A DNA stretch of 53,775 bases, taken from positions 1 to 53,775 of the forward strand of contig CAIPOF010000055.1 of the NCBI GenBank assembly GCA_903866605.1, written 5' to 3'. The first letter of the stretch is position 1; the number at the start of each line of letters is the position of its first letter. The position numbers and the translations under genes were made by a program. Below are positions 19,574 to 41,193 of this stretch, piece after piece. Below the pieces are notes generated by a model that made no database searches, was not told the origin of the DNA, and worked only from the letters and a program-made list of their open reading frames with translations. Source of the stretch: an uncultured bacterium (GTDB lineage: Bacteria > Patescibacteriota > Saccharimonadia > Saccharimonadales > Saccharimonadaceae).

Positions 19574-20431
19574 TTATCGTAAAGTCCACTGATTTCCACC
19601 TAACGCGCGGATTGTACCAGATATTTCCATTGTTGTTAAAGTCATTGAAAATTCACTAGCATCAAGTTCAGACAATAACTGTAATTCGTCGCCATCGCGA
19701 ATACCAGATTGTAACAGACTAATAATCTTGGATTCTTGTGGATTAGACCCCAGTGCCAGTGATGTTTGAGGTTGTAATAAATCTGGGGCAATAATTTCTA
19801 ACACATCCTGTGCACAAGTAATCGGATGAGCGCCTTGTTTTATTAAATTATTACATCCAGCCGACATCGGACTGGTTATATTACCTGGTACAACAAACAC
19901 TTCCCTTCCTTGTTCTAGGGCGTGCATAACAGTTGATAACGTTCCACTGCGACTTGCGGCCTCAGTCACTATCACTGCATCAGATAAGCCACTTACGATG
20001 CGATTGCGTTCTAGGAACTGAAAATCACGAGCTTCGGTAATAGGTTCGTATTCACTAATCATTGCTCCACCACCTTTGATAATATCTTTGGATAGATTAA
20101 TATGCGTTGACGGATAAATAGAATCTACGCTGTTTGCCAAAACTGCCAGTGTTATTCCACCAGCGTCGAGTGTTGCGCGATGAGCAATCCCGTCAACTCC
20201 TAGCGCAAGTCCACTAACAACAATAACCCCCTGTTTCGCCAAATCGAACGCCAGTTGATAAGTCACTTCCCTACCATAAGCGGTTGGCTTGCGAGATCCT
20301 ACAATGGCAACAGTTGGTCGGCGTTTTTCAGGTAATTTGCCGATAAAATATAATGTTTCTGGACATTTGGCAATAGTATCTATAATCTGTAGATATTTAT
20401 GGCTATGGGGTGATATTTTATTGATTTTCAT
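19574..20431 (-). CDS. dprA: DNA-processing protein DprA
   Basis: VAIVGSRKPTAYGREV, VVSGLALGVDGIAHRA and SRSGTLSTV motifs. Confidence 0.9.
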   Translation of the reverse strand: MKINKISPHSHKYLQIIDTIAKCPETLYFIGKLPEKRRPTVAIVGSRKPTAYGREVTYQLAFDLAKQGVIVVSGLALGVDGIAHRATLDAGGITLAVLANSVDSIYPSTHINLSKDIIKGGGAMISEYEPITEARDFQFLERNRIVSGLSDAVIVTEAASRSGTLSTVMHALEQGREVFVVPGNITSPMSAGCNNLIKQGAHPITCAQDVLEIIAPDLLQPQTSLALGSNPQESKIISLLQSGIRDGDELQLLSELDASEFSMTLTTMEISGTIRALGGNQWTLR

Positions 20432-20451
20432 ATAATTTATGTCGAAAAGTG

Positions 20452-20480
20452 TTGACTTATTGTCAAATAAGTGCTAATAT
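20452..20480 (+). promoter_or_regulatory. Near-consensus promoter with extended -10
   Basis: TTGACT (20452-20457), a 17-nt spacer ending in TGC, then TAATAT (20475-20480). There is no annotated plus-strand gene downstream. Confidence 0.55.
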
Positions 20481-20486
20481 CAGTCT

Positions 20487-20752
20487 CGATTGGTTACATT
20501 GCGAGATTAACCAAACGCACCTTATACCCCTATTCTAACTTATGTTAGATTATATACAATGTTTTTTTAAGGTAGACTACCCTCCAACCTTAAGAAATGA
20601 TACTTCGAGTATAAGCATTGTATATATACTAATCCCTTTAACCAGCAGGTGTCTGCGATTTAGTCGAGACCTACCTAGCTTGCCCCACGGGTGGGTTAAA
20701 GGGTAAAATAGCGCCCTCAGCGAAGCCCACCCTTGCTGTGGGCGCTTTTTTT
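20487..20752 (+). ncRNA. Candidate structured small RNA of unknown family
   Basis: Bounded by the promoter above and an intrinsic terminator. It has an 11-bp stem (20551-20561 / 20616-20626). An inner 11-bp hairpin (20563-20573 / 20587-20597) has one G-U that works only on the plus strand, and its loop contains CCCUCC. A 10-bp stem joins 20634-20643 and 20694-20703. Confidence 0.45.
20710..20752 (+). terminator. Intrinsic terminator, probably bidirectional
   Basis: GCCCAC-ccttgct-GTGGGC (alternatively AGCGCCC...GGGCGCT) is followed by T7 (20746-20752). On the minus strand the same hairpin is followed by AUUUUACCCUUU. Confidence 0.6.
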
Positions 20753-20771
20753 GCCCAAAATTTCGTCCTGC

Positions 20772-20885
20772 CGAACCATTAGGCTATCAAATCTTCCGGG
20801 CCGCTTTACGTGTGACTTTGTCAGCACGTGGCGCTAGGCTTCGCTAACGCTCTCATCCCTTCAGATTTAATAACCTAACGGTTCG
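20772..20885 (-). ncRNA. Candidate structured RNA element downstream of pth, unknown family
   Basis: A 23-bp closing helix (20772-20794 / 20863-20885) whose three non-Watson-Crick positions are G-U only on the minus strand. It encloses two hairpins. Confidence 0.4.
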
Positions 20886-20960
20886 TGATTACAAACATTT
20901 TGTTCCTTACATCCTTAATGGTATGAGATTGTATTGTCATATTCCAATAGCCAATAGCTA

Positions 20961-21527
20961 TTAGCTAATCTTGTGGCTTGTGTGTTCGAGTGAACTACTG
21001 CAAAATTGAGTAACTAATTTAACAGAATGCGGAATTATTTTTTCAATCAATAAGGTTAATTCGGGGTTAGTGAATTTTGCCAGTACAAATGACGCATCAT
21101 CTATTTTTACTTCTGACTCGATTGCAATACCTATTTTGATGCGCGTATACGGTGAGTCAATGTGGGTATTTATGGATTTAATACCGTTATTACCTGCGTC
21201 ACCGCCTTGTTTCCGAATTCGTATGGTACCAAATGGCAAACTTAAATCATCATGAATAACAAGTAAATCACTTGCGGTATCGAGCTTGTAAAAGTCGACT
21301 AACTTTCTGGCGGATATGCCTGTATCGTTATAATAAGTGGTTGGTTTAGCTAATATCACCTTCTGACCATCAATTTTAACCTCAGCGATAATAGCATCAA
21401 ACTTTGACTTTTTGGTCCATTTTGCGTCGTGCATGGTAACAATTGTGTTCAATACTAAAAACCCGGCATTATGTCGCGATAATGAGTAGTCTGGTTCGGG
21501 GTTGCCTTGGGCAAAAATCAGTTTCAT
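20961..21527 (-). CDS. pth: Peptidyl-tRNA hydrolase
   Basis: MKLIFAQGNPEPDYSLSRHNAGF, VIHDDLSLPFG and GGDAGNNGIKS motifs. It overlaps der by 4 nt. Confidence 0.9.
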   Translation of the reverse strand: MKLIFAQGNPEPDYSLSRHNAGFLVLNTIVTMHDAKWTKKSKFDAIIAEVKIDGQKVILAKPTTYYNDTGISARKLVDFYKLDTASDLLVIHDDLSLPFGTIRIRKQGGDAGNNGIKSINTHIDSPYTRIKIGIAIESEVKIDDASFVLAKFTNPELTLLIEKIIPHSVKLVTQFCSSSLEHTSHKIS

Positions 21528-22876
21528 TTAACTTTTTCCTCTTTTTCACGGTTGGCTTTAATCTGTTTTTCATCACGGAAACTAAATTTAATTGGCGTGC
21601 CAGTATAATTATAGGTTTCACGAAGTTGTCGTTCCAGATATCTTTTATAACTCCAGTGTAGATATTTAAGATTAGATCCATAAATAACAAACCACGGTGG
21701 AGTTGTGTCTGTCTGGACTATATAACGCAGTTTTGGATGAGTATTTTTAAGTCCTGCTGGAGGATGGCGCTGAATACTTTTTTGTAACATGTCGTTTAAA
21801 ACACGTGTTTTAGTTTGTTGTTTACGCCTATTATCGATATCTAATGCCAAATCAAATAATTTTGTAACGTTTTGGCCAGTTACACTACTTGTAAAAATTA
21901 GCGGTGTCCAAGGTGTAAAATCAAATGTTCTAGATATTTTGGGGGCTATTCCGTCACGAGTATAGGCGTCTTTGCCTTCGATACTATCCCATTTAGTAAC
22001 GACAATTACCATTCCCTTGCCTGCTTCGTCGATTATTCCAGCTATTCGTTGATCAAGTTGTGTGTTCAGCTCATTGACATCCATCAACAGCAAACAAACG
22101 TCTGATTCTTCAATGGCAGCCAAACTACGCAGGACGCTAAATTTTTCAATACCGACCTCTTGTTTGCCGGGTTTACGAATACCAGCAGTATCCAACAACT
22201 GAATATCTCGATTACCATATCTGACAGATACGCGATTTACATCCCTAGTGGTCCCAGCTACATTGGCAACAATCGCCTGTTGTTTGCCAGCTAGTGTATT
22301 AAATAAATAACTTTTGCCAACATTTGGGCGACCAATCAATGAAATGCGCAAAATATCATCAGGTACATATTCGCTTTTTTCAGGTATTTGACTGACAATT
22401 TCGTCTAAGACATCTGTGATGCCTTGATTATGTTCGGCACTGGTTCGAATAATTTTTTTAATACCAAGGCGTTTGAACTCGTCAATTGGCAAACTGTTTT
22501 TCAGATCGGCTTTGTTAGTCAGCAATATTACTGGTTTTTTACTGCGCAGGGCCTTTTTGGCTATTAAACGATCCTGGTCACTGGTATATTGGCTGCTATC
22601 AACGACAACCAAGATAATATCAGCTGTATCAGCCGCATCGGTAATTTGATCCTGAATTGATTCCTCAAACTCGTCATCGGGGTCTTTTAGCCCGGCGGTA
22701 TCAACTATCCAAAAGTTGTGTTTTTTGTATTCTACGCGTCCTAGGACGTTGTCACGAGTCGTTCCGGCTTCTCGGGCGACAATTGCTTGCTGTGAACGCA
22801 TAAAACGATTAAAAAGCGAACTTTTGCCAACGTTCGCTTGACCGATAATTGCAACTGTGGGTAATTTTGATGCCAT
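21524..22876 (-). CDS. der: Ribosome-associated GTPase Der (EngA)
   Basis: Two G domains (GQANVGKSSLFN/DTAG/NKAD and GRPNVGKSYLFN/DTAGIR/TKWD) plus a KH-like C-terminus. Confidence 0.95.
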   Translation of the reverse strand: MASKLPTVAIIGQANVGKSSLFNRFMRSQQAIVAREAGTTRDNVLGRVEYKKHNFWIVDTAGLKDPDDEFEESIQDQITDAADTADIILVVVDSSQYTSDQDRLIAKKALRSKKPVILLTNKADLKNSLPIDEFKRLGIKKIIRTSAEHNQGITDVLDEIVSQIPEKSEYVPDDILRISLIGRPNVGKSYLFNTLAGKQQAIVANVAGTTRDVNRVSVRYGNRDIQLLDTAGIRKPGKQEVGIEKFSVLRSLAAIEESDVCLLLMDVNELNTQLDQRIAGIIDEAGKGMVIVVTKWDSIEGKDAYTRDGIAPKISRTFDFTPWTPLIFTSSVTGQNVTKLFDLALDIDNRRKQQTKTRVLNDMLQKSIQRHPPAGLKNTHPKLRYIVQTDTTPPWFVIYGSNLKYLHWSYKRYLERQLRETYNYTGTPIKFSFRDEKQIKANREKEEKVK

Positions 22877-31104: not shown

Positions 31105-31130
31105 AGCTTAAGCGTTATTATAACAGAAAT

Positions 31131-31258
31131 TGGTAGTTGGTAGTTAGTATATGGTAGGTAGTATTTAGTAGATGGTAGTGAGCCGTTGGCATATCATCAT
31201 ATTTATAGCTACTACCTACTACCTACTAATTACTATTTACTAAATACTACCTACTAAT
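31131..31258. repeat. Long imperfect palindrome built from GGTAGT / ACTACC units
   Basis: The left arm has five GGTAGT-like units and the right arm is their complement. An exact 16-nt pairing joins 31155-31170 and 31238-31253. The right arm overlaps the gltX stop (31247-31249). Confidence 0.6.
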
Positions 31259-32701
31259 TTGCGTAGCAATATCTATGGCTAACTTTAATCGAGAATTCAC
31301 TTTTTCAGGTCCAAGAATAGAAAGCGTTTCGTTTAGTGCTGGGCTAAATGGAGCCCAAGATATCACCAAGCGAATAATACTAAATAGGACAGCTGGTTTT
31401 TGACCAGTTGTTTCTAGCAGAGTGTTCAGATTTTGTTGGATTGATTTTGCATCATTATTGCTAGACGAAAGTGCAATTTGAGCACTTTTTAATAGACCCA
31501 TTATCTCGCCTATGTTCAATTTACTAAGATATTTGTCTTTTTCCACCATATCCCAATTTGGTTTTGGCTCGTCAAAGAAGTAGGATGTTAGTATCGGCAA
31601 ATCGGCCATTGTTTTTAGCCTATCTTGTACAAGTCCAAGAATTTGCATTTTATATTTCTCACTAGCCTGTTTAGCTGACTCTGGCCAAAAATCATGGACT
31701 CGTCTATAAAGTTCATCCAACGATAATCGACGAATCCACTGACCGTTTAGCCATAATAATCTTTTCTCATCGAAACGAGCAGGACTTTTTTGAATTCTAT
31801 CAAGTGAGAATTTTTGTATCAATTCATCGACGGAAAATATCTCTTGTTCGGTACCATCATTCCATCCTAGTGTTGCCAGGAAATTTATCATTGCTTCAGG
31901 CAAATAACCCTCTTTGGCGTATTGTAAAATATCCTTAGCACCATCCCTTTTGCCTAATTTTTTTTGACCGTCAATTGACATCACGTACGGAAGAGTTGCT
32001 AATATTGGCCGCTGTATATTAAGTGCTTCATATAAATTAAGAAATTTTGGTGTTGAACTAATAAATTCTTGGCTTCTTAGCACGTGTGTAATCCCCATCA
32101 TCATATCATCAATAACATGACAAAAGTTATAAGTTGGATATCCATCAGATTTGATTAATATAAAATCATCGATTACTTCTGGCCCAGTTGATAATTCGCC
32201 CATAACAGCATCATTCCAGCGATATGGTTTAGGATCCGATTTAAATCGTAAAGGCTTACTTTCAGCCCAAGTATTTACTGATTCACGGCGATGATTACGA
32301 TACAAGAATGGTATTTTATCAGCCTTAGCTTGATTGCGAAATTCTTCTAACTCCTCCTTGCTGTATGGATCGGTGTAGGCACGACCATTTTCGACAAGTT
32401 GATTTGCCCACTTTTTATATATGTCTAACCTTTTTGATTGAAGATATGGTGCGTTTGGACCACCAATACCTATTCCTTCTTGCCAATTTATCCCCAACCA
32501 TTTTAGACTTTTTTCAATTTGTTCAATGCTGCCTTCAACTTCACGGACCTTATCTGTGTCCTCGATACGCAAGATGAAAATACCATTATTTTTTTGAGCT
32601 ATTAACCATGAAAATAATGCTGTTCTAACACCACCGACGTGCATAACGCCAGTTGGACTTGGGGCGAAACGAGTACGAATTGGTAGTTGGGTTTTATTCA
32701 C
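31247..32701 (-). CDS. gltX: Glutamate--tRNA ligase
   Basis: FAPSPTGVMHVGGVRTAL (HIGH region) and KKLGKRDG (KMSKS-like). Full length for class I GluRS. Confidence 0.95.
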   Translation of the reverse strand: MNKTQLPIRTRFAPSPTGVMHVGGVRTALFSWLIAQKNNGIFILRIEDTDKVREVEGSIEQIEKSLKWLGINWQEGIGIGGPNAPYLQSKRLDIYKKWANQLVENGRAYTDPYSKEELEEFRNQAKADKIPFLYRNHRRESVNTWAESKPLRFKSDPKPYRWNDAVMGELSTGPEVIDDFILIKSDGYPTYNFCHVIDDMMMGITHVLRSQEFISSTPKFLNLYEALNIQRPILATLPYVMSIDGQKKLGKRDGAKDILQYAKEGYLPEAMINFLATLGWNDGTEQEIFSVDELIQKFSLDRIQKSPARFDEKRLLWLNGQWIRRLSLDELYRRVHDFWPESAKQASEKYKMQILGLVQDRLKTMADLPILTSYFFDEPKPNWDMVEKDKYLSKLNIGEIMGLLKSAQIALSSSNNDAKSIQQNLNTLLETTGQKPAVLFSIIRLVISWAPFSPALNETLSILGPEKVNSRLKLAIDIATQISR

Positions 32702-36534: not shown

Positions 36535-36555
36535 CTATAGATTCCTGCGTACAGC

Positions 36556-36709
36556 CCTCACAACGTAAATCATTGCGATTCGAAACGCCCTCTCTGGTTA
36601 AAAACTGTCTTTTTGCAATCAACGTATCTATGGATATGTTTCTTTCAAAGAAGACAAGTTTATAGCTCATAGATTTTCGTCTCAAATCCCAACAATTTAC
36701 ATTGTGAGG
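36556..36709 (-). other. 15-bp inverted repeat enclosing 124 nt: structured 5' leader of the sortase gene or a MITE-like remnant
   Basis: CCTCACAACGTAAAT (36556-36570) pairs with ATTTACATTGTGAGG (36695-36709). The single mismatch is C-A on the plus strand and G-U on the minus strand. Confidence 0.4.
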
Positions 36710-36790
36710 ACTATATTTCTATTGTACACTATATTAATGGCTTCTACCGCTAGTGGATAGAGTCGATATGGAAGTCCTTTTACATTTTGC

Positions 36791-39233: not shown

Positions 39234-39331
39234 CACACTATTATAACAGAGAGACATGAAATAGCGCCCCTTTGTTCGACGAGGTCGCTATTTCACGAAA
39301 CTCGGAGCGCGGGGCGCGAAAGATTGTTAAA

Positions 39332-39919
39332 CTAGGAGAGTTCGGGGTGGGGCCATCTGGATCCGTCGCCGAGGGCACAAATGATTTGGTACGCTGGTAC
39401 CATTTCATCTTTCAGGACGGTTTGATCACTTTTGACTTCGGCGCCATAGCCGATGAAGGCTCTTTTGCCGATCTTGACGCCATCGCCGATTTCGGTCGAG
39501 CTCTCGATGCGTGCGTCTTTCCTGATGCGCACGCAACCGCCGATGGAAACGAGGTTGCCGATCTTGACATGCTTGCCAACACGGCACTTCTCGCCGGTCT
39601 TGACTTCGGCACCGATTTTGGTGCCTCTACCAATCCATGCACTATCGCCTATCTTGGTCATGCAGCCGACGACGACGTTGTCATCGATGATGCTGTTGTC
39701 GCCGATTGTGCAGGCGTCGCCGATTACGACTTCACTGCCGATAACGACAGCATCGTCAATCTTGACGCCATCGCCGATCTTGCTGTTGTCGCCGATGATG
39801 ACGTCATCGTCAATCTTGACGCCATCGCCGATCTTGACGCTATCGCCGATAACAACATCATCACCGATGATGACATCATTACCGATCTTGGCACTGCTTG
39901 AGATTGATGCATTCTTCAA
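39332..39919 (-). CDS. Hexapeptide-repeat (left-handed beta-helix) protein, GC-rich
   Basis: About 27 consecutive hexapeptides (KIGNDV IIGDDV VIGDSV KIGDGV ...). TTG start. GC3-rich codons unlike the neighbouring genes. The open frames on the plus strand look like repeat artefacts. Confidence 0.75.
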   Translation of the reverse strand: MKNASISSSAKIGNDVIIGDDVVIGDSVKIGDGVKIDDDVIIGDNSKIGDGVKIDDAVVIGSEVVIGDACTIGDNSIIDDNVVVGCMTKIGDSAWIGRGTKIGAEVKTGEKCRVGKHVKIGNLVSIGGCVRIRKDARIESSTEIGDGVKIGKRAFIGYGAEVKSDQTVLKDEMVPAYQIICALGDGSRWPHPELS

Positions 39920-39979
39920 AGTCCCCCCGTTCCTAGTTGTAAATGAACAAATCTTGAGCGAATAATACTATGATATTAT

Positions 39980-40780: not shown

Positions 40781-41075
40781 TACCTCTATTATAATACAAT
40801 TTTCACCCATTGTGGGCCTTTCTGTCCGATTAATATCTTTGTTTTCGTTCGTATCCTTCACATCATCGTAATAAACGATAACCAATCTCGTTTCGCGTTA
40901 ATAATTTAATCCAGACAACTTTGTATCCTGCGTAACTCGTTACCACTCAAACATACTCGGATAGCACGGTTGCCTGGATTAAAATATTACGGTAACTCAA
41001 CAGGTTATCTTATTATCACAATGAAATGAAGTCTACTAAATGCGCAAATCAAGTATGATATCACTTACTTTATTA

Positions 41076-41149
41076 CCAACAGACTGTGCCGGAAGGCAGC
41101 CGAACGCCACGTGCTAATCCAAAGGATTACACGTAGAGTGTGCTGTTGG
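41076..41149 (+). ncRNA. Second copy of the CGCCACGUGCU-hairpin-ACACGUA motif inside a closed stem; strand uncertain
   Basis: Closing stem CCAACAG/CUGUUGG. Hairpin UGCC-GGAA-GGCA. Hairpin 41109-41134 is homologous to 20808-20829 with a compensatory apical stem. Confidence 0.3.
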
Positions 41150-41193
41150 AATAAATGTAAGTGACAGCAGACGGTAGAAAGCAAAAACGTCTT

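Follow-up and report, generated by a model that had tools for sequence, protein, structure and literature searches.

A dispersed family of structured intergenic repeats in Saccharibacteria with a member in the pth–dprA spacer

Known intergenic repeats and element E

BOX elements of Streptococcus pneumoniae and BIMEs of E. coli consist of short non-coding modules in varied arrangements. They are dispersed through intergenic regions in both orientations, and their transcripts are predicted to adopt very stable structures. ERIC and Correia (CREE/NEMIS) sequences are MITE-like imperfect palindromes of approximately 100–150 bp that occupy intergenic and UTR sites, are co-transcribed with their neighbors, and have hairpins that are preserved by compensatory changes; their proposed roles are those of RNase targets or mRNA stabilizers. 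The termini of ERIC and Correia sequences are conserved, and Correia elements are accompanied by TA duplications. The REP and REPIN sequences mobilized by RAYTs are strand-specific intergenic hairpins, in which single REPs are 20–40-nt palindromes with a 5′ GTAG that are near-identical within a genome, and a REP doublet forms a hairpin of ~100 nt. The attC sites are also imperfect palindromes (57–141 bp), with structure conserved over sequence, extrahelical bases, and folding on one strand. In these sites, the basal R and L boxes are conserved and the tip is variable, and the sites occur in co-oriented arrays beside intI.

Saccharibacteria live as ultra-small epibionts, and their ~1-Mb genomes are tightly packed; to our knowledge, very few non-coding RNAs have been described in them. 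In the 53,775-nt stretch of DNA analyzed here (the window), a structured element, designated E, is located on the minus strand at positions 20772–20885, downstream of pth. This copy (copy 1, subtype A, 114 nt) is one member of a dispersed, previously uncatalogued intergenic family of ~115 nt in Saccharibacteria. A full-text search of the literature found no such elements described in Saccharibacteria or the candidate phyla radiation (CPR).

Like BOX and BIMEs, E is a short non-coding module that occurs in varied arrangements, either by itself or in mosaic units with one of two companion modules on its 5′ side (U1-E and U2-E); it is also intergenic, found in either orientation, and very stable in its predicted structure if transcribed. 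It has no sequence similarity to BOX or BIMEs, belongs to a different phylum (within the CPR), and differs from them in its three-way-junction core, its covarying stem of ~30 bp, and its strong G·U bias on one strand. Its copy number also appears to be lower, at tens per genome of roughly 1 Mb. E resembles ERIC and Correia sequences in size, palindromic form, intergenic or UTR location, and a hairpin preserved by compensatory changes, whereas its termini vary by subtype, no duplication was seen, and the conserved part is the apical core. Dispersal, size, and compensatory change were all observed in E, as in ERIC, Correia, and BOX elements, and its co-transcription is suggested by its position. 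E was rejected as a REP or REPIN because its GUAG (GUAA in copy 1) is situated at the 3′ foot of the core hairpin and its arms are neither one repeated unit nor REP doublets. It was rejected as an integron attC site because the base of its helix varies and its tip is conserved, the opposite of attC, and because its copies are scattered in both orientations; the attC-like GTTAGGT in one arm of copy 1 is absent from the other copies. We favor, with modest confidence, the interpretation that E is a new mosaic, RNA-structured intergenic repeat, comparable in kind to BOX, BIME, ERIC, and Correia, none of which is related to it in sequence.

Structured elements in the pth–dprA spacer

The gene calls around copy 1 were confirmed, with der (21524–22876), pth (20961–21527; Pept_tRNA_hydro), and dprA (19574–20431) all on the minus strand and der and pth overlapping. 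The closest named relatives of the Pth protein of the window belong to Candidatus Saccharibacteria/Saccharimonadales. Copy 1 begins 75 nt after the pth stop codon, as the preliminary description had estimated, in a pth–dprA spacer of 529 bp (20432–20960). Its closing helix, P1, pairs the 5′ arm at 20885–20863 (CGAACCGUUAGGUUAUUAAAUCU) with the 3′ arm at 20794–20772 on the minus strand over 23 uninterrupted positions, comprising 20 Watson–Crick and three G·U pairs; on the plus strand, the three wobble positions are A·C. Both the 23-position pairing and this strand difference had been noted before and were borne out. The window contained three uninterrupted Watson–Crick and G·U helices of ≥23 bp at a span of ≤200, including that of copy 1, and 20 dinucleotide shuffles of the window contained none. 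The predicted folding energy of copy 1 was −54.9 kcal/mol for the minus-strand RNA (z = −7.94; 0 of 200 shuffles were as good) and −38.0 kcal/mol for the plus-strand RNA (z = −4.47).

P1 leads into a three-way junction with two inner hairpins. The second of these, P3 (20808–20829, minus strand; ACGUG-C-UGAC-AAA-GUCA-CACGU), is the most conserved part of the E family, in which it is near-invariant and represents the family signature; it has no second exact match in the window. Both hairpins had been proposed previously, but the first, in the P2 region (20831–20850, minus strand; GCGUUAG-CGAAGC-CUAGCGC), stands only partly: it is the minimum-energy fold of copy 1, but the GCGUUAG/CUAGCGC pairing is broken in two orthologous loci (G·G in L018; A·G and C·A in L075). 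Because the substitutions that break it are loop changes in the consensus form of P2 (GC-GNNA-GC; GC-GUUA-GC in copy 1), the consensus form is better supported; in the family consensus, the short P2 is accompanied by a second hairpin that is extended. Copy 1 is followed by a single-stranded 3′ tail at 20755–20771 (GGCAGGACGAAAUUUU), for which a flank profile of 78 distinct copies gave the family consensus GG-Y-AGAA-N-ACGAAWAU. An 11-codon ORF inside copy 1 (MRALAKPSATC) was rejected as a gene because its frame is lost in L009. A −10-like TGTAAT ahead of copy 1 was rejected as a promoter, as it is changed to TGTAAC or TGCAAC in the orthologues.

A GC-rich hairpin followed by a T-run at 20711–20752 (20725–20752 in the terminator scan) was the sole terminator-like site downstream of pth and copy 1. 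Although this hairpin had been thought capable of terminating both strands, only its plus-strand form is a canonical terminator, and its minus-strand U-tract is weak (UAUUUUAC). It was retained in all the related pth loci, at 0–45 nt past the pth stop codon where E was absent. Copy 1 itself was rejected as an intrinsic terminator, given that it is followed by GGCAGGACGAAA and the family as a whole by GGYAGAA, with no U-tract on either strand. Because copy 1 is in sense with these genes and the only terminator comes after it, it would be co-transcribed in the 3′ UTR of der–pth.

The comparison loci were gathered via Pth homologues with 78–88% identity. Eight loci from the same species, with an identical Pth (L001–L008), had spacers that were 100% identical to that of the window and were therefore uninformative for conservation. 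Among seven species chosen by Pth similarity alone, E was located between pth and the terminator in three (the window, L009, and L018) and was missing after pth in four (L011, L013, L015, and L016). In L011, L015, and L016, the pth stop codon lies 0–45 nt from the terminator, whereas the gap in L013 holds a GC-rich ORF; the pth loci without E differ from the filled ones by imprecise indels. The spacer of L018 was 92% identical to that of the window and contained the whole of E, with a second E core copy 1.4 kb away, and in L009, a P1 of different sequence surrounds the same core hairpin. GC-rich small ORFs of 107–125 amino acids, absent from the window, were observed beside pth in some of these relatives (L009, 2547–2870; L018, 2550–2927; L013, 3667–4020; all on the minus strand). 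They had no Pfam match and no mutual similarity detectable by BLASTP, and U modules and palindromes (GACCCTAGGGTC repeats) were seen alongside them.

The preliminary description had remarked on the large size of the spacer in connection with the element. The length of 529 bp is correct, but it is accounted for mainly by a second, conserved candidate on the opposite strand, not by E. This single-locus small-RNA candidate of ~266 nt (20487–20752, plus strand) is predicted to form five stem–loop domains (z = −6.9) and is preceded by a promoter-like site at 20452–20480 (plus strand; TTGACT, a 17-nt interval, and TAATAT with an upstream TG); the hairpin and T-run at 20711–20752 form its terminator. 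The strongest conservation in the spacer was found at approximately 20435–20752 and not in E: this block showed 82–96% nucleotide identity, compared with 78–88% amino acid identity in the neighboring Pth. At 80–96% nucleotide identity, the candidate was present in 12 or more distinct related contigs, without exception between dprA and pth; its second hairpin carries an insertion that varies, and it had no match in Rfam. The ends of several metagenome contigs (L007/L008, L009, L013, and L019; window ~20509–20544) fall inside the candidate or at E copies, which suggests that sequences that are near-identical across co-occurring strains, such as the E copies and the small-RNA candidate, break metagenome assemblies.

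Members, structure, and strand bias of the E family

The E family extends far beyond the window. A 20-base pattern of the E core, searched in the JGI metagenomes, matched 94 stretches representing 93 distinct 200-nt contexts. In the genome collections, the core was found in one Saccharibacteria MAG at an unrelated locus, with a pattern that demanded the AAAGT loop and so left the commoner GAAGT variants outside its reach. No match to the core pattern was found in IMG/VR. A sequence search of the window allowing three mismatches detected copy 1 alone. We then applied a covariance model (R1; 115 positions, 45 pairs) to which the structure was supplied; RNAalifold, run on a plain MAFFT alignment, recovered the outer P1 pairs and P3 only. 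In the window, R1 identified copy 1 at 20771–20886 on the minus strand (81 bits, E-value about 1e-19) and a second copy, of subtype B, at 41053–41172 on the plus strand (copy 2; 102 bits, E-value about 1e-25), which had escaped the sequence search. Copy 2 is antisense to both flanking genes, and its 3′ end lies 21 nt from the smpB stop codon; the distal stem of its P3 covaries, with UAAUCC/GGAUUA in place of UGAC/GUCA. An identity as the tmRNA at smpB was rejected because neither copy 2 nor its adjoining U2 module has tRNA-like ends and the family occurs in multiple copies. R1 gave 111 matches over the 698 kb of fetched loci, including the two in the window, and the density of E in the DNA examined was approximately one copy per 25–60 kb.

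The fold-trimmed length was 110–119 nt in 53 of 78 copies. P1 extends over ~25–35 bp, and its sequence drifts while complementarity is retained; among the copies, a bulge in the 3′ arm and a 1 × 1 internal loop close to the base are recurrent. A short inner helix occurs in several variants (CAACAG/CUGUUG, AAACGG/CCGUUU, and GGG/CCC), and the strands of the three-way junction are conserved (ACUGUG, CAGCCGAACGCC, and AGAGUG). The consensus P2 is a small hairpin with a GNNA or GAA loop. The arm sequences are common within subtypes but differ between subtypes, as they do between the two copies in the window, and the two copies in L018 (a and b) have strongly different arms within one genome.

No tmRNA, SRP RNA, RNase P RNA, 6S RNA, or familiar riboswitch class had been recognized in copy 1 at the outset, and searches with Rfam 15 agreed. 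Positions 20300–21100, searched on both strands at E-values of up to 10, matched no family (the best score was 16.7 bits, against a threshold of 60), and ten related loci gave no match. In the whole window, the gathering threshold was reached by two tRNAs and nothing else, and ARAGORN likewise detected two tRNAs and no tmRNA. Neither a conserved promoter nor a U-tract terminator flanking E was found in the terminator scan or the flank profile.

Base pairing in E has been maintained through sequence change. In the R1-based alignment, 90.8% of cells were paired, compared with 73.5% in column shuffles (0 of 500 reached the observed value), and 27–44% were paired when the partners were slid. Changes on both sides were seen in 36 of the 45 pairs and in 26 of the 27 P1 pairs, counts that are inflated to some extent because the alignment was fitted to the model structure and orthologous copies were counted separately. 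At the pth locus itself, the alignment of related spacers that had been suggested as a source of covariation gave a mixed result. Orthologues of copy 1 are present in L018/L019, L064, L075, and L094. Its five close orthologues retained 20–23 of the 23 P1 pairs; a compensatory change of both partners occurred once (C-G to A-U at position 5), alongside two changes from G·U to A-U, and one from A-U to G·U, but they also contained several changes that break pairs, concentrated at the site of the internal loop in the family.

The argument for a minus-strand fold, originally based on the three G·U pairs of copy 1, holds for the whole family. The sense fold was more stable than the antisense fold in 70 of 80 copies, and the mean difference was 6.7 kcal/mol. 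When the arms were aligned without an energy model, non-Watson–Crick positions on the sense strand were G·U in 127 cases and A·C in 19; an excess of G·U over A·C was seen in 47 copies, and the opposite in four (binomial p about 1e-20 for positions and 1e-10 for copies). G·U pairs made up about 8% of the arm positions, a proportion usual for RNA helices. These results show that the fold of E is selected on one strand, although the G·U bias fits RNA and single-stranded DNA alike. In terms of sequence comparison, the support for E is strong, on a par with that for accepted RNA motifs, with covarying helices, conserved junction bases, and selection on one strand.

Genomic context, companion modules, and possible modes of action

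E was intergenic in 84 of 91 copies. The preliminary description had placed the element just downstream of pth, but the family is not specific to that gene; E is dispersed beside many unrelated genes and in either orientation. The 158 proteins encoded beside E fell into 99 clusters, of which the sole sizeable one was Pth, with ten loci carrying different E subtypes, and no other family, transposases included, recurred consistently. Relative to its two flanking genes, the orientation of E was same/same in 26 cases, opposite/opposite in 16, opposite/same in 10, and same/opposite in four, and ~40% of the copies ran antisense to the gene end closest to them. A role confined to acting in cis on the mRNA is therefore insufficient to account for one-strand selection in every copy. 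In two sets of orthologous neighborhoods, E was present in opposite orientations (L039 versus L052/L070, and L043/L071 versus L082). The nearest gene on the 3′ side of E was usually 0–70 nt away, whereas on the 5′ side there was a gap of 100–450 nt. In 42 of 85 copies, this gap contained sequence common to the gaps of other copies, always on the strand of E itself, and this sequence was one of two structured modules, U1 or U2.

U1 is ~110 nt long, begins with GACGGGUCCUGCCG, and bears the sequence marks GACGGGUCCUGCCGUUCGG ... CCGAACGUCACCCGU; copies were found at L018 2150–2265, at L059 4607–4700 and 6600–6700, and in L025, L046, L056, L065, L098, and L112. In 11 of 20 U1-E units, an inverted copy of the U1 5′ strand lies just 3′ of E, so that an inverted repeat of 13–33 bp or longer encloses the whole 250–330-nt unit; the mismatches in these bounding repeats were biased as in the E arms, with 16 G·U and five A·C. 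In L059 (4600–6700), two inverted U1-E units flank an RNase H domain gene and a KwaB-like gene (Kiwa defence), a cassette layout that resembles a composite transposon.

U2 is a second structured repeat family of ~150–170 nt with the core GUAUCCUGCGUAACUC...CAAACAUACUCGGAUAGCA, and is usually located 40–60 nt 5′ of E. Its long stem is variable, its apical core is conserved, and its flanks are conserved as AAUAAACGACAACC ... GGUUAUCUUAUUAU. In the window, U2 occupies 40866–41012 on the plus strand, 40 nt 5′ of copy 2, and the U2-E composite had a fold z-score of −7.4. The U2 of the window was 78–88% identical over most of its length to sequences in L009/L010 (L009, 2270–2379), L020, L021, L027, L028, L030, and L042, and partial, shorter matches were found in L024, L033, L081, L104, and others; the gene contexts of U2 differed. 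Neither U1-E nor U2-E composites matched Rfam. A viral link via the U modules was rejected because the matches to a 17-mer of U2 came from one unrelated viral sequence and those to a 15-base pattern of U1 were at the chance level. The window and its relatives thus contain at least three uncatalogued families of structured intergenic modules, together with one conserved single-copy small-RNA candidate.

The functional form of E is probably RNA. In the interpretation that we favor, a transcript of the strand of E itself would form a very stable RNA domain, supplied by the U-E unit itself or through read-through of a co-directional gene upstream. Of 38 solo copies, 26 followed a co-directional gene, as did 15 of the 35 copies accompanied by a U module (Fisher p = 0.035), a modest effect that is expected if E needs transcription and U-E units supply their own. 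The RNA would probably serve as a structure that is recognized by proteins, resists nucleases, or directs processing, in the manner suggested for BOX, ERIC, and Correia repeats, and it may influence mRNA or act in trans. If E acts as RNA, the family offers a large, ready alignment for finding a protein partner or an activity.

The main rival to this RNA interpretation is a mobile element of single-stranded DNA. E may be non-autonomous mobile DNA (MITE-, REPIN-, or PATE-like), the single-stranded fold of which is used by a trans-acting enzyme of the HUH/Y1 or another type, and the RNA structure would then be a by-product. We consider this unlikely, although several observations speak for it. 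E is small (~115 nt), non-coding, multi-copy (93 contexts, and two copies in the 53.8-kb window), and dispersed in either orientation, and it flips between orthologous neighborhoods; different subtypes occupy the same pth site in different species, and in others E is absent. The inverted repeats of 13–33 bp and longer around U1-E and the inverted pair around the RNase H and KwaB-like cassette are also as expected of mobile DNA, and a G·T wobble bias is expected equally of single-stranded DNA elements. GAA triloops closed by C-G (C-GAA-G) and GCGAAGC are classic stable DNA mini-hairpins, and such loops in P2 and P3, like the bounding repeats, fit a single-stranded DNA element equally well. If E is mobile, it would be a marker of genome plasticity, in the form of cassette flanking and site turnover, in a streamlined lineage. 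However, no direct repeats that could represent target-site duplications were seen flanking E or the U1-E composites, no empty site with joined flanks was found in 754 kb, and no transposase was consistently nearby. The arms are always complementary, as terminal repeats would be, but their sequence is common only within subtypes and differs strongly between subtypes and within one genome, which argues for an old family under a pairing constraint rather than for recent bursts of transposition. Moreover, conservation lies in the apical core and not at the termini, and the share of G·U in the arms is typical of RNA.

A less probable alternative, which we regard as doubtful, is that E, alone or as U-E, is an independently acting RNA in which the junction is either catalytic, as in a self-cleaving ribozyme, or a ligand- or protein-binding site, and the 3′ tail serves as a seed in trans. 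The highly conserved junction nucleotides, the covarying stems, the constant size and bulge positions, and the conserved single-stranded 3′ tail are all consistent with this, as is selection on one strand whatever the orientation of the neighbors. E also clusters with other structured modules, as known small ribozymes do. On the other hand, solo copies, including copy 1, lack a conserved upstream promoter, and there is no terminator. No known ribozyme model matched, and a hammerhead ribozyme in particular was rejected: the CUGAC(A/G)A string of E forms the stem and loop of P3, whereas the hammerhead needs CUGANGA and GAAA strands left unpaired amid three helices, the position of hammerhead G8 is A in copy 1 and many other copies, and no Rfam hammerhead model matched.

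Further-reaching is the idea that E with U1 and U2 constitutes a new selfish or regulatory RNA module peculiar to Saccharibacteria, present in tens of copies per ~1 Mb, in which the junction would be the active site of a new self-cleaving ribozyme class or would be recognized by an enzyme through which E is copied or moved via RNA or single-stranded DNA; we put this forward as speculation with a small chance of being correct. Finally, although copy 1 lies at an operon 3′ end, where hairpins are common, and Rfam models can miss diverged CPR RNAs, it is very improbable that E is a chance inverted repeat, an ordinary pth terminator, or a known RNA family in diverged form, considering the absence of the helix from all 20 shuffled windows, the 111 covarying homologous matches, the lack of a U-tract on either strand, and the results from Rfam and ARAGORN, the latter of which found only the two tRNAs.

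Three other structured or repetitive regions were observed in the window. A hairpin of ~166 nt at 36545–36720 on the minus strand, between a gene of 417 amino acids and tRNA-Leu, is very stable (−73.3 kcal/mol, z = −10.4) and is closed by an uninterrupted helix of 26 bp; apart from a 24-nt match, it was not repeated in the fetched loci. At 31120–31260 on the plus strand, there is an intergenic, imperfect palindrome rich in GGUAG/CUACC, with arms of ~39 nt (z = −4.8), and similar low-complexity stretches rich in TAG or GGTAG precede several E copies elsewhere. At 39442–39898, an 18-nt periodic repeat (GCCGAT..GAC, 9–10 copies) lies in overlapping ORFs at 39272–39965 and probably represents a hexapeptide-type repeat protein, unrelated to E.
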